From: Escherichia phage Phi1
Strand: one strand, 5' to 3'
Length of the DNA stretch: 64,000 bases
Sequence record: EF437941
This document shows positions 32,861 through 62,095 of this stretch, piece by piece. Below the pieces are notes generated by a model. It was not told where the DNA came from. It saw only the letters and a program-made list of their open reading frames with translations, and did not search any database. Position numbers and translations under genes: made by a program. How positions within the stretch are numbered: the first letter of the stretch is position 1; each line of letters begins with the position of its first letter.

Positions 32861-32888
32861 GGAATCCTTCGGATTCCTTTTTCTTTTT
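32861..32888 (+). terminator. rho-independent terminator
   Basis: Hairpin GGAATCC-TTC-GGATTCC followed by a T-rich run. Confidence 0.6.
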
Positions 32889-32889
32889 G

Positions 32890-32897
32890 TATAAATA
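32890..32897 (+). promoter_or_regulatory. late promoter TATAAATA upstream of gene 24
   Basis: Exact TATAAATA 37 nt upstream of the proposed gene 24 ATG. Confidence 0.6.
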
Positions 32898-32934
32898 TGA
32901 TATATCCATTAAGGCAAATACAGGATTCATAAAC

Positions 32935-34176
32935 ATGACTCATATTTTTACTGAACTGTTGCGGGAATCTACTTCCTCAGTAGCTAACCAGACAGCGCGA
33001 CCGCAACTATTATCATTAACTCGCGCGGTAAACAACCTGATTTTCTCTGATCTGGTAGCGATCCAGCCAACGGATCAACCAGTATCTGCATTGTACGGCC
33101 TACGTTATCTTAATCATGATGGTCAGATGACTTTCCGAACTGCTGCAACCTACGGTGGAGCGGTTGGTGATCGCACAGAGATTGAAGAGTTTTCAAAAGA
33201 AAAATCTTATGACGAAGGCGCACTATTCAAATCAGGCGATGTTGTATACGAAGTTGTGACCGCTGGTACAGTCGGTGAAGATGCCGCAACTCCAGAAGCT
33301 GCGATCTTTAAAGGCGTAATGACAAACAAAATTCGTTTCTATAGCGATTGTGCATCGGTAGAATACTTTGAAGATAAAAACACCGAAATTGCGTCTACCT
33401 CTATGCAGTTTGACAAGTGGCAAGTTAATGTAGGTTCTCGTAAACTGAAAACCTCGTTCACCACTGAATTAATGCAGGATCTTGAGGCAAGCCAAATCAA
33501 CTCTGAAAACTCTGTAATTGATCTTCTGGCTACTGTTGCTTCCGAAGAGATCAACAAAGATATTATTCAGAAGTTGATCACTGTATCATCTCGCTATAAA
33601 ATTAAAGGGATCACCCCTGATGGCGTACTTTCTCTCGTTAGCGTTCAGGATGCACCAACACAAGCGCGTGAACTTTACCGCTATGCTTGCGAGATGAGCA
33701 ATCAAATGTTGCGGACTTCCTCCTTTGCTGGTACATACGTTTTGGCGTCTTCTCGCGTGGTTGGCCTCCTGCAATCTTCCGGTTGGATGGAAGAAACCGA
33801 CAATGCTCTAAGCGAAGGTCGTCTACGTTGCGGTCTGGAAGTGTACGCAGACACGACAACACCTTTCGATTATATGCTCGTTGGTTGTAAGCACATGATC
33901 GGTGATATGGAGAGTGTAGGTTCTCTGTTCTACTCCCCATATACAGAAGCCGACGGCGCTGGCGCGTATAAGAGTGTAATTGACCCTAATAGCTTCCAGC
34001 ATCATGTAGCTATTATGAATCGTTATTCACTCTCTGTCAACCCATACACATCAAAAGTTGATCAGGAAGAACACCAGGTCATCAAGGGTGACGATTGGGG
34101 TAAAATGGCTGGACGTTCAGAAATGTCCTACATTTTAGGAATCGAACTGCCACCGCTTGAGATTGACAACGCTTAA
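32935..34176 (+). CDS. 24: head vertex protein gp24
   Basis: Start moved from the track TTG (32887) to ATG at 32935; N-terminus ...ELLREST... resembles T4 gp24. Confidence 0.85.
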   Translation: MTHIFTELLRESTSSVANQTARPQLLSLTRAVNNLIFSDLVAIQPTDQPVSALYGLRYLNHDGQMTFRTAATYGGAVGDRTEIEEFSKEKSYDEGALFKSGDVVYEVVTAGTVGEDAATPEAAIFKGVMTNKIRFYSDCASVEYFEDKNTEIASTSMQFDKWQVNVGSRKLKTSFTTELMQDLEASQINSENSVIDLLATVASEEINKDIIQKLITVSSRYKIKGITPDGVLSLVSVQDAPTQARELYRYACEMSNQMLRTSSFAGTYVLASSRVVGLLQSSGWMEETDNALSEGRLRCGLEVYADTTTPFDYMLVGCKHMIGDMESVGSLFYSPYTEADGAGAYKSVIDPNSFQHHVAIMNRYSLSVNPYTSKVDQEEHQVIKGDDWGKMAGRSEMSYILGIELPPLEIDNA

Positions 34177-34764
34177 CTAAATATCTAACCAAGACAAGTC
34201 AGATCCGCCCAAGATTTTTTCGACGGCGGATCTATTTTCTTGATGATATAAGTTAAAACATGGTATCCCATGTCTACGGGCAACATAAACAGCAATTCGA
34301 GTTCCTCCCGAAACGATTCCATTAACTTCTTTCGCCCAGAATATCACACAATCTACAGGATCATCAAGTGTCTCACCTAAGACTTGAGCAACATTTCTAG
34401 AAAACAGATTTTGCATGTATAACGGTATAGAACGAGGATTATCATAAACGTGTTCTAATTCATCCATCGCCAGATTTTTTTGTTCTAAGGTTTGCCATGC
34501 AATCACATCATGACCGTTATGCTTGTGGTCATAAAACTTCCAATTTGGAATGAAAATTTTTCTATAATCTGGATCGTAATACTTCATGAAAGCATTGTCC
34601 ATACCGTAAGCCCCTCCAGAATGCGCTACAACGCGATTTTCTGACAATACCCTCCCAATGGTACTAGCCATTATCAAAATGTCGCTAGGCGCTTTTCTAG
34701 AGCCGATTAAAGCACATCTACGAAGTGGTTTTACTCCAAATAGATCTTGTAACTGGTCAAACAT
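34177..34764 (-). CDS. DprA/Smf-like SLOG-family Rossmann-fold protein
   Basis: 195 aa; GSRKAP...VVAHSGGAYGMDNAF resembles the GSR...SGGAxGxD signature of DprA/SLOG proteins; RBS GGAGGA; stop codon abuts the gene 24 stop. Confidence 0.5.
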   Translation of the reverse strand: MFDQLQDLFGVKPLRRCALIGSRKAPSDILIMASTIGRVLSENRVVAHSGGAYGMDNAFMKYYDPDYRKIFIPNWKFYDHKHNGHDVIAWQTLEQKNLAMDELEHVYDNPRSIPLYMQNLFSRNVAQVLGETLDDPVDCVIFWAKEVNGIVSGGTRIAVYVARRHGIPCFNLYHQENRSAVEKILGGSDLSWLDI

Positions 34765-34916
34765 AATATTTCCTCCATAGAAAGCAATATCATACTACAA
34801 GTTAATAACAAATACAAGTATCCGCGTAGCGGAAGCGAGCACAGCGAGCAATAAAACACTTCCAGTAATTGATTAATAAATGTTCGAAACAAATTTTTAT
34901 TATTCTATAAGATAAG

Positions 34917-34942
34917 TCTTCGTTTTGATCATAATTTAATCA
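34917..34942. repeat. 26-bp direct repeat, copy A
   Basis: TCTTCGTTTTGATCATAATTTAATCA; identical copy 149 bp away in an ORF-free region. Confidence 0.8.
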
Positions 34943-35065
34943 TACATGTAAAAACTACACAAAAGGATATCGCTTCGCGAACTCCTACGGAGTATAACAT
35001 TTGTGTTACAATATGTAGTGATTAATAATTAACCAAAGATACATTTTCTATGTTCTAAAGATCTT

Positions 35066-35091
35066 TCTTCGTTTTGATCATAATTTAATCA
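35066..35091. repeat. 26-bp direct repeat, copy B
   Basis: Identical to copy A; on the + strand copy B reads TTGATC, 17 bp, TATTAA (promoter-like). Confidence 0.8.
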
Positions 35092-35143
35092 AACAGTATT
35101 AATATTGTGCACATGTAAACTAAAATTATGTTAATAACAGATA

Positions 35144-35169
35144 CAAAAAAGCCGCCCCAAAGGACGGCT
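35144..35169 (-). terminator. rho-independent terminator (- strand) after the 145-aa gene
   Basis: On the - strand: AGCCGTCC-TTTG-GGGCGGCT followed by TTTTTT. Confidence 0.65.
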
Positions 35170-35177
35170 AATGTTAA

Positions 35178-35615
35178 TTATTTGTTGATAACGATCTGAT
35201 TTCGGCGAATGGTAACATTACTCTTAGAGATGATCAGATCATCCGGCACTACGTTAGTTTTGTATGGTTGGAAGCGAACAAGCATCTGATTGCGTTTAGA
35301 CCCTTCCTTAATCTTGATTTCCATCTGGATATTGTTGCCTACGTGAGCAACCGCAATTTCACCTTTATTCTCATAGACCCACTTGCTGGTAACGTCTCCA
35401 GCAAAAGCCTTAATAACTTGCAATGCTTCGTCGTATGCGGTAGAGCTGTGAACTTTCAGAAGGCCAGCCGTAGCAAGACGTGAGCAGGTGATCGCCGGAG
35501 ATTGCCAAACATCAACATTAATTTGCTCAATCAGAGTAACACCGCCCTGATCAACTGCTTTAAATGCTTCGAACATTGCCTTTTTCATTGCTACGTGGTT
35601 TTTACGGAATTTCAT
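35178..35615 (-). CDS. hypothetical protein (145 aa)
   Basis: ATG with RBS GAGGTGA; no recognised motif. Confidence 0.55.
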   Translation of the reverse strand: MKFRKNHVAMKKAMFEAFKAVDQGGVTLIEQINVDVWQSPAITCSRLATAGLLKVHSSTAYDEALQVIKAFAGDVTSKWVYENKGEIAVAHVGNNIQMEIKIKEGSKRNQMLVRFQPYKTNVVPDDLIISKSNVTIRRNQIVINK

Positions 35616-35661
35616 AATTAGTCACCTCTATTGATTAGTTATTCAGAATATTAATTACAAA

Positions 35662-35937
35662 TCAGGACATTGCCCGTTTGAATGCGTCCATTATAACAGT
35701 GTTATTTGGCTTGTCAACACGTTTTTGAACTTTATTTTTAAATTTTTTGTTGATGTGGTGTTTACGATAAACAACCTTTTCACGGTTGGCGTAAGCCTCG
35801 CGTGCGTCTTTTACCATCAACCATGCCTTAGCCGCATCTTGTCCGCTGATCCCGCCAATCTTCTTAGCAATATCAACAAAATTAAGACCGTGGTCTTCGC
35901 GTAGCATGTAAACCATTAACGCTGTTTTCTTGTCCAT
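35662..35937 (-). CDS. putative helix-turn-helix DNA-binding protein (91 aa)
   Basis: Internal ATG of the 127-aa track ORF that overlaps the stop of the upstream membrane-protein ORF; HTH-like segment ALMVYMLREDHGLNFVDIAKKIGGISGQDAAKAW. Confidence 0.4.
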   Translation of the reverse strand: MDKKTALMVYMLREDHGLNFVDIAKKIGGISGQDAAKAWLMVKDAREAYANREKVVYRKHHINKKFKNKVQKRVDKPNNTVIMDAFKRAMS

Positions 35938-36134
35938 CACTTCGCCCCATTGACGATTAACAGGATAGTGATCAGCACCGGAAACTGGATCATGATAGTG
36001 CCAATAAACCGGATAAATGCATTTTCTGACTTCCACACATGACATGCGACTAGCTGATAGACCATCGTTGAAACCAGAACTAGGATATAAACCGAAAGCG
36101 GTGTAACTTCGATTAGTCGGGAAATCTCATTCAT
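35937..36134 (-). CDS. small membrane protein (65 aa, two predicted TM helices)
   Basis: ATG with RBS GAGGTGA; two hydrophobic stretches; stop overlaps the start of the next ORF. Confidence 0.45.
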   Translation of the reverse strand: MNEISRLIEVTPLSVYILVLVSTMVYQLVACHVWKSENAFIRFIGTIMIQFPVLITILLIVNGAK

Positions 36135-59663: not shown

Positions 59664-60140
59664 TTATTTTTCTTGATGCTCGCGCTCGTACTTTTCGAAA
59701 TAAAATTCTACTGGCTGATCGTGGATTGAAAGCAAGCCAAAGCGTTTAGCCGCTCGCAATCCCATATTGCGCTGAATGTACTTCTGGAAGTTCTCGCGTA
59801 TACACTTACGCCAGGATTCTAAGCCCATACAGCTTTTATAAAGATTGCATTGCACACACGCCGGATTCATGTTATCAAGTATATCATGCTCCGGTTTATG
59901 CATTCCTACAACCTTATACTTCCACGATCCATCATCATTACGAGCAATTCGTCCATTTTCATCATAGACTACCTTTGAGCGTCGTAATACTGGTTTGATG
60001 TGGTCTGCGTGCCAGCGATCCCCTAGTTCCTCGCCACAATAGGCACAACGTCCACCATATTTCATTTTCAGGATCTGGCGTTGCTCTTTCTTTGACAATT
60101 TTTTAGGTTTAGGGGCTTTCGCCCCTTCATTATCACACAT
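59664..60140 (-). CDS. HNH endonuclease
   Basis: CAYCGEELGDRWHADHIKP plus NMNPACVQCNLYK (HNH motif with paired Cys clusters); start overlaps the ligase gene end. Confidence 0.75.
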   Translation of the reverse strand: MCDNEGAKAPKPKKLSKKEQRQILKMKYGGRCAYCGEELGDRWHADHIKPVLRRSKVVYDENGRIARNDDGSWKYKVVGMHKPEHDILDNMNPACVQCNLYKSCMGLESWRKCIRENFQKYIQRNMGLRAAKRFGLLSIHDQPVEFYFEKYEREHQEK

Positions 60141-61629
60141 CGAATACCTCTTTTACTGTATTTGCAGTGGTCTTGTCGTAGCGAATACGTTTGATGATCG
60201 GGAGAAATAAAGAGAACTCCGGTTCATCTTCTTTACGTGATTTGCTTCGAATGTACCCGTTGCATGTCATCTCAATGACTTTTCCGACCAGGTTATGCCG
60301 TTCAGCCCATAACATTTCTCGGTCAAGATCATTTCGACGATCGAACGGAATTACACGTTCAATACCATCATCACATTTTTCGGTTGTGGTGTCAGTCAAT
60401 CCCGATCCGGTGTTAGTCATCATTCGTCCGCACGCACTACGGACAGTAAAACCGCCCACCTTATTAGGATCTTTACTATGCGGATATACATCAACAATTT
60501 CCGCGTCGAAGTCAATCACTTCTTTAAATTTAACCTGATCTTTACTGCGACGATCTTCAAATACACCATGTAAATTTTTAAGGATAATACCTTCTAATCC
60601 CATGTTTACATAGCGATGATATACTTCGCGAGCTTCATCGAGATTGTTAACTACGGTATTTTCGATTATCTGAACACGAGGATCGTTAAGTTCTTCAACA
60701 ATCTGTTTTAGTTCCTCAAATCGATCTTTATACTGCTTCGTTGCTTTCTCGTTACCGTAGTACACATCACGGTCGATAACATCCCAGACAGTGTAAACAA
60801 TACATTGGGCTTCTTCTTTTGGAATAGTTCCTTTCAGTGATTTGTTGAGGATACCATTTCCGGTCTGACGATCTGCAACAACGGATTCTTTCACTGCTTC
60901 CGTTACTGGCGTTAATGGCATTTCCTCTTCTTCAAATATCCATGACAGAGTACCATCATAAACGCTCTCAACGAAGTTCTGCGCTGGTGTTTGCGAAAGG
61001 GTAGGCATATATACCAATTCGCCATCTAGAACAATTCCACGGCCTCGTAAACGCTCTAAAACCGCAAACAAATCATCAAGCCCTTGATAGGTATTACCTG
61101 AGCGGGTATAGATTGCTAATGTTTCCCCGTCAATATCAGCCATCCCACGAGCGCCATCGCTTTTAAGTTGTGCATACGCCGGATACTTGATATTAGCAAT
61201 AGTCTTGTCAGAACATGACGATGCAAGGTGGCACGGCTGCTGGGGGATCAGTTTCTTCCATACCTTGTTTGCAGTGGTAGCGGAACAACCGCATTCCAGG
61301 TCACGATTCAGGACCATCATTGCAACTTTAGCATCATCCTCTGACAAGCAAGTCAGAGTATCGGTAACTAGCTGTAATGCTGCATTACCAGTTACTTGAC
61401 GCGTGGCAAGTTTATTTTTAAAGACCTGTAATGCACCGGATAAAGACAATACAGACGAATAACGCGATGGTTTATCGTATTTCTTTACGCCAAACGTAAC
61501 CTGTTTGCAATATGCCAGATAAAAGCATTCTTTCAGCGTTTCATTGCTCGCGGATTCTTTCAGAATCTTTTCTTTCAGCGATGTTTTGTCTGTTGCTGCA
61601 AGCTGATTAATGATATTAAGAATTGACAT
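60133..61629 (-). CDS. 30: ATP-dependent DNA ligase gp30
   Basis: Start set to ATG at 61629 (RBS GAGGTGA); adenylation motif KSDGAR; overall resemblance to T4 ligase. Confidence 0.9.
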   Translation of the reverse strand: MSILNIINQLAATDKTSLKEKILKESASNETLKECFYLAYCKQVTFGVKKYDKPSRYSSVLSLSGALQVFKNKLATRQVTGNAALQLVTDTLTCLSEDDAKVAMMVLNRDLECGCSATTANKVWKKLIPQQPCHLASSCSDKTIANIKYPAYAQLKSDGARGMADIDGETLAIYTRSGNTYQGLDDLFAVLERLRGRGIVLDGELVYMPTLSQTPAQNFVESVYDGTLSWIFEEEEMPLTPVTEAVKESVVADRQTGNGILNKSLKGTIPKEEAQCIVYTVWDVIDRDVYYGNEKATKQYKDRFEELKQIVEELNDPRVQIIENTVVNNLDEAREVYHRYVNMGLEGIILKNLHGVFEDRRSKDQVKFKEVIDFDAEIVDVYPHSKDPNKVGGFTVRSACGRMMTNTGSGLTDTTTEKCDDGIERVIPFDRRNDLDREMLWAERHNLVGKVIEMTCNGYIRSKSRKEDEPEFSLFLPIIKRIRYDKTTANTVKEVFDV

Positions 61630-62095
61630 TTTCACCTCGTTTTGTTAAACGTTCACGAATATCATTGAGGATACTACAAAATTCCGATTCAGTCAATATA
61701 GTCTTTAACGGATCAGTTCCACCTATACTATGACGCAATTTCTTATTTCCGGTAGCGAGTAATGCTTTACAAAATTCTGGGTTATTCCGTGCCATCGTAA
61801 CAAATGCCAGATGTACCAGTCTGTAATAATGCTCACTCATTCGATGAATCGGGCGACCCTGAAAATATAACATGTGATTCTCTATCTTTTCGGTCCTTCC
61901 GGTTCTTTTTGCTTTGCCACCGTGCATCAAAAAGATTTCTCTTTGTCTCTGAGGGTTCTTAAATCTTAGCCCCTGTAAAAATCCTTCTGTGCTGTTAATA
62001 TCGCAACCAAATAGACGGAATGGTCTTTTATTGAAATTACTCAATTCACCCGATGGATAAGGTCCACCCGCATAGATATCAATTTCAGAAGTCAT
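61616..62095 (-). CDS. possible NADAR/YbiA-like (DUF1768) protein
   Basis: Loose matches to YbiA-like motifs: GELSNF, STEGFLQGLRF, ALLATGNKKL; 159 aa; overlaps the ligase start by 14 nt. Confidence 0.45.
   Translation of the reverse strand: MTSEIDIYAGGPYPSGELSNFNKRPFRLFGCDINSTEGFLQGLRFKNPQRQREIFLMHGGKAKRTGRTEKIENHMLYFQGRPIHRMSEHYYRLVHLAFVTMARNNPEFCKALLATGNKKLRHSIGGTDPLKTILTESEFCSILNDIRERLTKRGENVNS

Follow-up and report, generated by a model that had tools for sequence, protein, structure and literature searches.

A stand-alone DprA-type SLOG protein encoded tail to tail with gene 24 in Escherichia phage Phi1, and a predicted terminator within its coding sequence

Escherichia phage Phi1 carries a small gene for a SLOG protein next to gene 24, the gene of the capsid vertex protein. 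We analyzed this gene in a stretch of 64,000 nucleotides (nt) of the phage DNA (sequence record EF437941), which is called the window in this text. The gene encodes a stand-alone DprA-type SLOG (Rossmannoid) domain that belongs to the protein family PHROG 768. An original prediction, made from the letters of the sequence, had placed here a DprA/SLOG-like Rossmann protein of 195 amino acids (aa), encoded on the minus strand, with a stop codon directly abutting that of gene 24. The open reading frame (ORF) is present as described, with an ATG start and a GGAGG 7 nt upstream of it. The stop codon TAA of gene 24 occupies positions 34174..34176, and the CTA that follows it (34177..34179) is the reverse complement of the TAG of the SLOG ORF. 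The two stop codons therefore abut without a spacer. The same TAA-CTA junction is kept in the Krischvirus relatives L008-L010.

The region of 1.9 kb around the SLOG gene shares 99.9% identity with Enterobacteria phage GEC-3S, and it has matches in 57 related records. The SLOG protein is 100% identical to its counterpart in Krischvirus RB49. Therefore the window belongs to a Krischvirus, i.e., to an RB49-like T4-type coliphage. The RefSeq annotation of GEC-3S already names the ORF “DprA-like DNA recombination-mediator protein”; in that genome the gene is flanked on one side by the head vertex protein gene (gene 24) and on the other by a series of small ORFs toward hoc and inh. The GenBank record of vB_EcoM_Skers labels the same ORF “putative RNA ligase”, which is probably a positional annotation error. 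A minor discrepancy concerns gene 24 itself: its mechanically called ORF begins with a TTG located 48 nt upstream of the ATG annotated in GEC-3S (32887-32934), which gives a product of 429 aa rather than 413 aa.

The assignment to PHROG 768 (“DprA-like DNA recombination-mediator protein”) is based on a full-length profile match with an E-value of 1.2e-60 and 205 bits, in which residues 15-187 are aligned with positions 4-181 of the 191 profile positions. The Pfam DprA model (PF02481) gives a match below its threshold (22.3 bits versus a cut-off of 29.6, residues 15-60 only). TIGR00732 gives 14.4 versus a cut-off of 191, and there is nothing useful in NCBIfam. We also scanned 32 members of the family with Pfam. 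PF02481 was matched by 28 of them (best E-value 4.6e-6), and none of the 32 matched the LOG, YpsA or YAcAr families.

The family is large. Homologues were found with tblastn in 1353 of approximately 50,700 phage records, including phages of Klebsiella, Pseudomonas, Escherichia, Aeromonas, Vibrio, Acinetobacter, and Rhizobium and one Thermus phage. An exhaustive profile search resulted in 6308 clusters at 50% identity, 2161 of them with E-values below 1e-30. A word-indexed search with the single protein sequence returned only six relatives, so the profile and exhaustive searches were needed to reveal the family. In several IMG/VR loci (L028, L036, L072/L073, and L080) the SLOG match is located inside ORFs of 988-3056 aa with almost no Pfam domains, the sole exception being a sub-threshold match to 2OG-Fe(II) oxygenase. 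These long ORFs may be polyvalent proteins, products of stop-reassigned genomes, or artefacts of a simple ORF caller. The giant ORFs of L028, L036, L072, and L080 were left out of the analysis.

An AlphaFold2 model of the monomer, built from a 32-sequence alignment, has a mean predicted local distance difference test score (pLDDT) of 93.9. The predicted fold is a three-layer alpha/beta Rossmannoid that resembles solved SLOG members. Comparison with the DprA, LOG and SLOG families, which had been proposed as a check of the original prediction, places DprA nearest: it is the best structural match, with 131-132 of the 195 residues aligned. Identity to ThsA is 11%. Among the predicted viral structures of BFVD the model finds a tight group of phage proteins (E-values from 1e-7 to 1e-13, TM-scores of 0.6-0.8), and the viral YspA/YAcAr SLOG proteins are clearly apart from it (E-value about 1e-3, TM-score about 0.45).

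The DprA domain of H. pylori binds single-stranded DNA (ssDNA) through a small conserved pocket, which takes up one inserted base (Wang et al., PMC3950713). Two motifs were proposed in the same work as DprA signatures, namely G-S/T/A-R (Gly50-Arg52 of HpDprA) and F/L/Y-x-x-R-N/D (Phe140-Asn144); they separate DprA from LOG proteins, which have a PGGxGTxxE motif (PMC3950713). The arginine of G-S-R is the “switch” arginine of the pocket in H. pylori DprA. Both signatures are present in the phage protein, as G21-S22-R23 and L120-F-S-R123-N124. The glycine loops of SLOG domains are represented by SGGAxGxD (residues 49-56) and GGT (153-155), which are 97-100% conserved, and the stretch S49-D56 aligns with SGGALGVD of H. 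pylori DprA. Conservation was computed over an alignment of 146 family members (Table 1). The GSR ... SGGAxGxD pattern noticed originally thus holds for the whole alignment, since G21-S22-R23 and S49-G-G-A-Y-G-M-D56 are invariant or nearly invariant in the 146 members. The position of the catalytic glutamate of LOG proteins is occupied by Ala158 (alanine in 97% of the members) within the local sequence V-S-G-G-T-R-I-A, and there is no acidic residue nearby. We infer from these motifs that the phage family keeps the base-binding pocket of DprA (the G-S-R loop, the L-x-x-R-N helix, and the G-G-T loop) without the catalytic apparatus of LOG. The bound base may sit on a strand or may be a free nucleotide; the pocket motifs fit both.

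Table 1. Coordinates of the features of the SLOG locus in the window
Feature	Position	Strand	Remarks
Coding sequence of the stand-alone DprA-like SLOG protein, 195 aa	34177..34764 (stop codon included)	-	ATG start
Ribosome-binding site GGAGG	34772..34776	-	7 nt upstream of the ATG; direct sequence reading
Gene 24 (capsid vertex protein), convergent neighbour of the SLOG gene	32887..34176	+	
Codons G21-S22-R23, first DprA signature motif G-S/T/A-R	34696..34704	-	G 100%, S 95%, R 100%; invariant in alignment A2
Codons S49-G-G-A-Y-G-M-D56, glycine-rich SLOG loop/helix	34597..34620	-	S49, G50, A52, G54, D56 97-100% conserved
Codons L120-F-S-R123-N124-V-A-Q127, second DprA motif F/L/Y-x-x-R-N/D and family-specific Gln	34384..34407	-	L120 84%, R123 100%, N124 97%, Q127 99%
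Codons G153-G154-T155-R-I-A158, second glycine motif	34291..34308	-	G153, G154, T155 100%; A158 97%
Putative intrinsic-terminator hairpin of gene 24	34201..34233	+	9-bp GC-rich stem AGATCCGCC/GGCGGATCT, 15-nt loop
U-rich tail ATTTTCTT after the stem	34234..34241	+ (gene 24 sense)	Relatives: TATTTTTA (L093), GTTTTTTT (L095)
Non-coding region of 413 nt, 5' of the SLOG gene	34765..35177	-	Lies between the gene and the terminator of the preceding ORF
Terminator-like stem of the preceding ORF	35150..35169		Terminator-like site in the promoter/terminator scan

Bacterial DprA/Smf proteins (PF02481; structures 3MAJ, 4LJK/4LJR, and 3UQZ) have the same order of secondary structure elements as the phage protein and share with it both ssDNA-pocket motifs as well as the SGGAxGxD and SG..TA-like glycine motifs. 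Unlike them, the phage protein scores below the Pfam and TIGRFAM cut-offs and has no SAM or DML1/winged-helix domains. It also has a different insert at residues ~60 to 115, the family-specific Q127, and the G-G-T loop. In addition, the phage gene is found in lytic phages, whereas DprA is found in competence regulons.

Domain fusions, which are more informative than the gene neighbourhoods, argue for a connection of the family with ADP-ribose. We scanned twenty longer proteins from the best 150 representatives. The SLOG domain is fused to NADAR in eight of them (including P0032, P0033, P0041, P0084, P0137, P0158, and P0162), an architecture that recurs, and to DUF4326 in four (P0066, P0078, P0147, and P0158). 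Fusions to Macro (P0119 and P0158), to additional YAcAr and LDcluster4 SLOG domains, and to DUF7831 were each found in two of the twenty proteins, and one is a RecJ exonuclease with a C-terminal SLOG domain. In seven further loci, genes of Macro, NADAR, DUF4326 or NAMPT are located no more than 6 kb from the SLOG gene. In Krischvirus, SLOG, NADAR, and Macro are three separate genes. The NADAR of the gp30.3/AdfN type is encoded in the window at 61616..62095 on the minus strand (PF08010, E-value 1e-38), immediately downstream of the DNA ligase ORF 60133-61635. The Macro-domain protein of RB49 (151 aa; PF01661, E-value 6e-7) is encoded outside the window, at L091:29043-29498.

T4 gp30.3 (AdfN) and other NADARs strip ADP-ribose from guanine in DNA and counter DarTG1, and DarG-type Macro domains remove ADP-ribose from thymine in DNA (PMC11825919, PMC11125620). 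The substrates that have been demonstrated for phage NADAR and DarG Macro are ADP-ribosylated bases in ssDNA. A survey of NAD+/ADP-ribose systems of viruses by Iyer, Burroughs, Anantharaman, and Aravind (2022; PMC9503650) described phage SLOGs fused to Macro, NADAR, and DUF4326 as well as sporadic SLOG fusions to nucleic-acid enzymes, and predicted that viral SLOGs sense or cleave soluble signals similar to cyclic ADP-ribose (cADPR). An earlier paper of the same group suggested that phage DprA/Smf is possibly an extra ssDNA-binding protein (PMC7824862). The viral SLOGs of the survey are like the family studied here: they are stand-alone proteins of medium and large caudoviruses, with the same fusions and co-occurrence with Macro, NADAR, and DUF4326. 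However, the survey puts most viral SLOGs in a YpsA-like clade, whereas the present family is closest to DprA by both sequence and structure and is clearly apart from the viral YAcAr/YspA group (E-values in BFVD of 1e-7 or less versus ~1e-3).

The second line of association is with RNA ligase 2 (Rnl2, encoded by rnlB in T4). In Jiaodavirus Mineola and Karamvirus fGh-Ecl04 the SLOG gene lies directly 3' of a T4-type RNA ligase 2 gene, with overlapping stop and start codons, and is convergent with gene 24. In Pseudotevenvirus IME-CF2 the pair is located elsewhere in the genome, near a NAMPT gene, yet the two genes are still together. Among 80 IMG/VR loci, Rnl2 is directly upstream of the SLOG gene in 11, which correspond to seven of 60 lineages defined at 90% identity; the overlap is usually 1-22 nt. 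In T4-like phages of other genera, translation of the SLOG gene is coupled to that of RNA ligase 2. The T4 numbering used in the Mineola annotation is consecutive for gp24 (NP_049789) and Rnl2 (NP_049790), which means that rnlB adjoins gene 24 in T4. Several other T4-like genera have in common an arrangement in which rnlB and SLOG face gene 24; T4 itself lacks a SLOG gene at this position. The original prediction had placed the gene at the position where T4 has rnlB. This is correct as far as the vicinity of gene 24 is concerned, but the SLOG gene is not a replacement of rnlB, because in relatives it lies between rnlB and gene 24. A tblastn search of the whole RB49 genome (L089-L092) at E-values of 0.01 or less revealed no homologue of RNA ligase 2. 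The genes rnlA and pseT are present in GEC-3S (L088). In other phage groups the SLOG gene has varied neighbours of the early type, including genes of GapR-like and PTH2-like proteins, GMP reductase, a Dda-like helicase (four loci), and NAMPT. In LSL4, an ATP-dependent DNA ligase gene is located about 1.4 kb from the SLOG gene.

Since the DprA pocket is kept and the LOG glutamate is missing, we think it most likely, although only tentatively, that the protein is a binder of a non-LOG type that holds on to a base or nucleotide within single-stranded nucleic acid and is accessory to repair or counter-defence. The DprA-like pocket would take hold of one base or nucleotide, which is possibly ADP-ribosylated or otherwise damaged, and the protein would serve the nucleic-acid repair or counter-defence enzymes of the phage. 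In other lineages the partner enzymes could be those encoded by the adjoining gene (RNA ligase 2) or fused to the domain (NADAR, Macro, DUF4326, or RecJ). In Krischvirus, which has no Rnl2, they might be NADAR of the gp30.3/AdfN type and Macro, encoded as separate genes. A strand-binding role is favoured by the DprA-type pocket, the missing LOG glutamate, and the links to Rnl2, RecJ, and helicase, and a connection with ADP-ribose is favoured by the fusions to NADAR, Macro, and DUF4326. The two lines would be reconciled if the pocket reads a single-strand base in ADP-ribosylated or broken DNA or RNA. Several observations weigh against this interpretation. The NADAR, Macro, and DUF4326 fusions fit a soluble ADP-ribose-derived ligand equally well. 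The protein itself is mildly acidic, with an isoelectric point of 6.4 versus a family median of 8.4. The adjacency to Rnl2 is confined to T4-like phages and may be largely inherited synteny, and most other genomic contexts are heterogeneous.

A more specific version of the proposed strand-binding role can be formulated, to which we give rather low credence. The protein would be a base-flipping reader of ssDNA or RNA that works with the gp30.3/AdfN NADAR and Macro (and with Rnl2 in other T4-like genera) in finding and repairing ADP-ribosylated or nicked nucleic acid. It would then be the specificity subunit that is missing from the counter-defence of phages against toxins of the DarT type or against nuclease effectors such as Avs3, and the fusions to NADAR, Macro, and RecJ would provide the “Rosetta stone” of this partnership.

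A different explanation is that the protein senses, soaks up or degrades a soluble molecule derived from NAD+ or ADP-ribose (for example cADPR isomers, His-ADPR, ADPr>P, or ADPr-1''P) and produced in host immunity or RNA repair. We regard it as a real possibility, although a less likely one. The original prediction had guessed at the binding or processing of a signalling nucleotide, and for viral SLOGs the idea is already in print as a prediction (PMC9503650). It agrees with the fusions of the domain to NADAR, Macro, DUF4326, and other SLOG domains, with the presence of genes for Macro and the gp30.3 NADAR in the genome of RB49, and with the NAMPT neighbours in L023, L026, and IME-CF2. However, the closest relatives of the protein are DprA and not ThsA (11% identity) or YpsA/YAcAr, which are matched neither in Pfam nor closely in structure. 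The conserved residues of the pocket are those that hold a DNA base in DprA, and the substrates demonstrated for NADAR and DarG-type Macro carry ADP-ribose linked to DNA. Several contexts (Rnl2, RecJ, and Dda-like helicase) are nucleic-acid enzymes, and no sponge or anti-Thoeris activity was reported for this fold in the literature that we searched. If the protein were instead a classical recombination mediator, a DprA-like dimer would cover ssDNA and load a recombinase, either RecA of the host or UvsX of the phage. This is what the RefSeq and PHROG names imply; DprA is indeed the best structural match, phage DprA/Smf has been suggested as an extra ssDNA-binding protein (PMC7824862), and a Dda-like helicase is a neighbour in the four loci mentioned above. 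Yet the phage already has UvsY, UvsW, and gp32, the SAM and C-terminal domains of DprA are absent, and about 60 of the 195 residues are off the DprA superposition. The associations with NADAR, Macro, DUF4326, and Rnl2 would be left unexplained as well, and we consider a mediator role improbable.

Enzymatic activity of the LOG type is very improbable in our view. A phosphoribohydrolase acting on AMP or another nucleotide has been proposed in silico for ORF83, a phage protein annotated as Smf/DprA that is reported to inhibit type III Avs (Gao et al. 2022, as described in the EVADES preprint, 10.1101/2025.06.06.658234; the AMP hydrolysis is the proposal of the preprint). R123 and T155 of our protein correspond to the active-site arginine and threonine of LOG, and ORF83, compared by its description only, is likewise a small phage SLOG with an R-N dyad, a conserved threonine, and homologues fused to DUF4326. 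On the other hand, by the same description the spacing from R-N to T is 22-23 residues in ORF83 versus 32 in the phage protein, and the reported best structural match of ORF83 is LOG, whereas ours is DprA. Marseillevirus-type relatives linked to ORF83 match our model weakly (E-value 1e-3, TM-score 0.46). LOG/PpnN-type phosphoribohydrolases (PF03641) have the glutamate of PGGxGTxxE, while the phage protein has Ala158 in its place, and the Pfam scan of 32 members gave no LOG match; a LOG-type hydrolase is unlikely on these grounds. Least probable of the explanations considered is a mimic of the antitoxins ShosA or PsyrA, which are DprA-like; such a mimic would replace them and disarm abortive infection by ShosTA or PsyrTA. 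PADLOC gives weak matches to PsyrA (E-value 4e-5) and ShosA (E-value 3.5e-4), but they span only the first 45 residues, and the SLOG protein has no N-terminal extension. ShosA is a DprA-like dimer that requires ssDNA binding and contact with RecA (PMC12961424). The identity of ShosA (PDB 8ZVA) to the phage protein is 14%, which is below the identity to ordinary DprA, and the phage protein lacks the SAM domain and the extra helix alpha14 that ShosA needs for stability and dimerisation. ShosA is encoded by the host beside a PRTase toxin, whereas the phage gene has no toxin partner, its neighbours being gene 24 and small phage ORFs. Finally, the family is far wider than ShosTA-bearing hosts would explain. 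Our literature searches yielded no phage SLOG and no anti-Thoeris or anti-ShosTA protein with this fold that had been tested by experiment.

The gene and its DprA-like name are already public, and so are the assignment to SLOG and the ADP-ribose hypothesis. The small additions of the current work are the translationally coupled pair of Rnl2 and SLOG in several T4-like genera, which is absent from Krischvirus; an explicit map of the pocket motifs of DprA over the phage family; and the evidence for a gene 24 terminator embedded in the SLOG coding sequence. A very abundant phage family carries a confident name that is purely homology-based. If its pocket reads damaged or ADP-ribosylated single strands, the family could bear on the in vivo specificity of phage NADAR enzymes, a question left by the AdfN study. 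The role of strand reader, if true, would also provide RNA ligase 2 with a partner; to our knowledge, the biological role of this ligase is still unsettled. If soluble ADP-ribose signals are bound instead, the proteins would form a new class of anti-signalling proteins. For specialists, the family is a large piece of the repair and counter-defence toolkit of phages, and for annotators it is an ordinary one. For the window itself, the outcome is mostly a correct annotation and a tidy example of a terminator in the coding sequence of a convergent gene.

The hairpin that could terminate gene 24 transcripts, proposed originally at roughly 34202..34233 inside the SLOG coding sequence, is present there and is strong. 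Its arms are AGATCCGCC (34201..34209) and GGCGGATCT (34225..34233), six of the nine pairs of the stem are GC pairs, and the structure overlaps the codons R-S-A...G-G-S at the 3' coding end of the SLOG gene. On the sense strand of gene 24 the stem is followed by the tail AUUUUCUU, so the features of an intrinsic terminator (a GC-rich stem, a U-tract, and conserved pairing) are all present. The minimum free energy of the 96-nt region is -29.8 kcal/mol versus -11.2 +/- 2.6 for shuffled sequences (z -7.25), and none of 200 shuffles was equally stable. Our promoter/terminator scanner accepts loops of 3-8 nt and missed the hairpin because its 15-nt loop exceeds this range.

Comparison with relatives supports the pairing. 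In L010 (87% protein identity) both arms are unchanged despite differences in the loop, in the flanks, and in the last eight residues of the protein. In L093 and L095 (57-59% identity) the arms are GGAACCGCC and GGCGGTTCT. Here one pair is compensatory: U:A is replaced with A:U, which on the coding strand is a Ser-to-Thr substitution matched by a synonymous change of a Gly codon in the other arm. The closing pair A:U is replaced with G:U on the sense strand of gene 24; on the opposite strand it would be an A:C mismatch. The stem is followed by a U-tract in each of them. Across four distinct sequences, pairing of the 9-bp helix is complete (100%) and includes one compensatory pair, while slid registers pair at 30-59%; covariation statistics are thin because there is a single compensatory event. 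The direction of the G:U pair and the U-tract point to a terminator of gene 24 transcripts, i.e., the hairpin is a predicted intrinsic terminator that serves gene 24 and lies within the SLOG coding sequence. In the Krischvirus lineage and the nearer relatives L093 and L095 this putative terminator lies within the region encoding the C-terminus (R-S/T-A ... G-G-S). In L096 (50% identity) the stops of the SLOG gene and gene 24 are 25 nt apart (L096:4565-4589). The spacer is filled by a separate GC-rich hairpin GGGGGCGAATGCCCCC, and there is none inside the coding sequence. The spacer hairpin of L096 versus the coding-embedded hairpin of the others suggests that the position of the terminator shifted between lineages.

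On its 5' side the SLOG gene is preceded by a non-coding gap of 413 nt, which presumably carries a candidate promoter of its own. The scanner found no convincing promoter for the SLOG gene, and reading by eye gave a weak candidate, TTGTAT-17-TATGAT, and nothing better. A scan of 34000..35700 against Rfam gave sub-threshold noise only, with no family in the gap. We also considered that the gap is a decayed rnlB and rejected this, since tblastn with two Rnl2 proteins gave no match there or elsewhere in the window. Among the Krischvirus relatives the length of the gap varies from 412 to 574 nt.

The gap contains repeats. A direct repeat of 38 nt is present at 34909-34946 and 35058-35095, with 89% identity between the copies and a distance of 149 nt. 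Its exact 25-mer occurs twice versus zero occurrences expected by chance, and each copy includes ATGATCAAAACGAAG, the start of a tiny ORF (MIKTK...). A 17-nt repeat is located at 34801-34817 and 35130-35146, each copy after a hairpin. Farther upstream on the minus strand is the ORF 35178-35615, which encodes 145 aa, has no Pfam match, and is conserved in Krischvirus-like contigs only. It is preceded by the ORF 35662-36045 (minus strand) of a DUF2774 protein (E-value 1e-28). In Mineola, fGh-Ecl04, L093, and L096, genes of DUF2774 proteins are also found in the interval from hoc to the SLOG gene.

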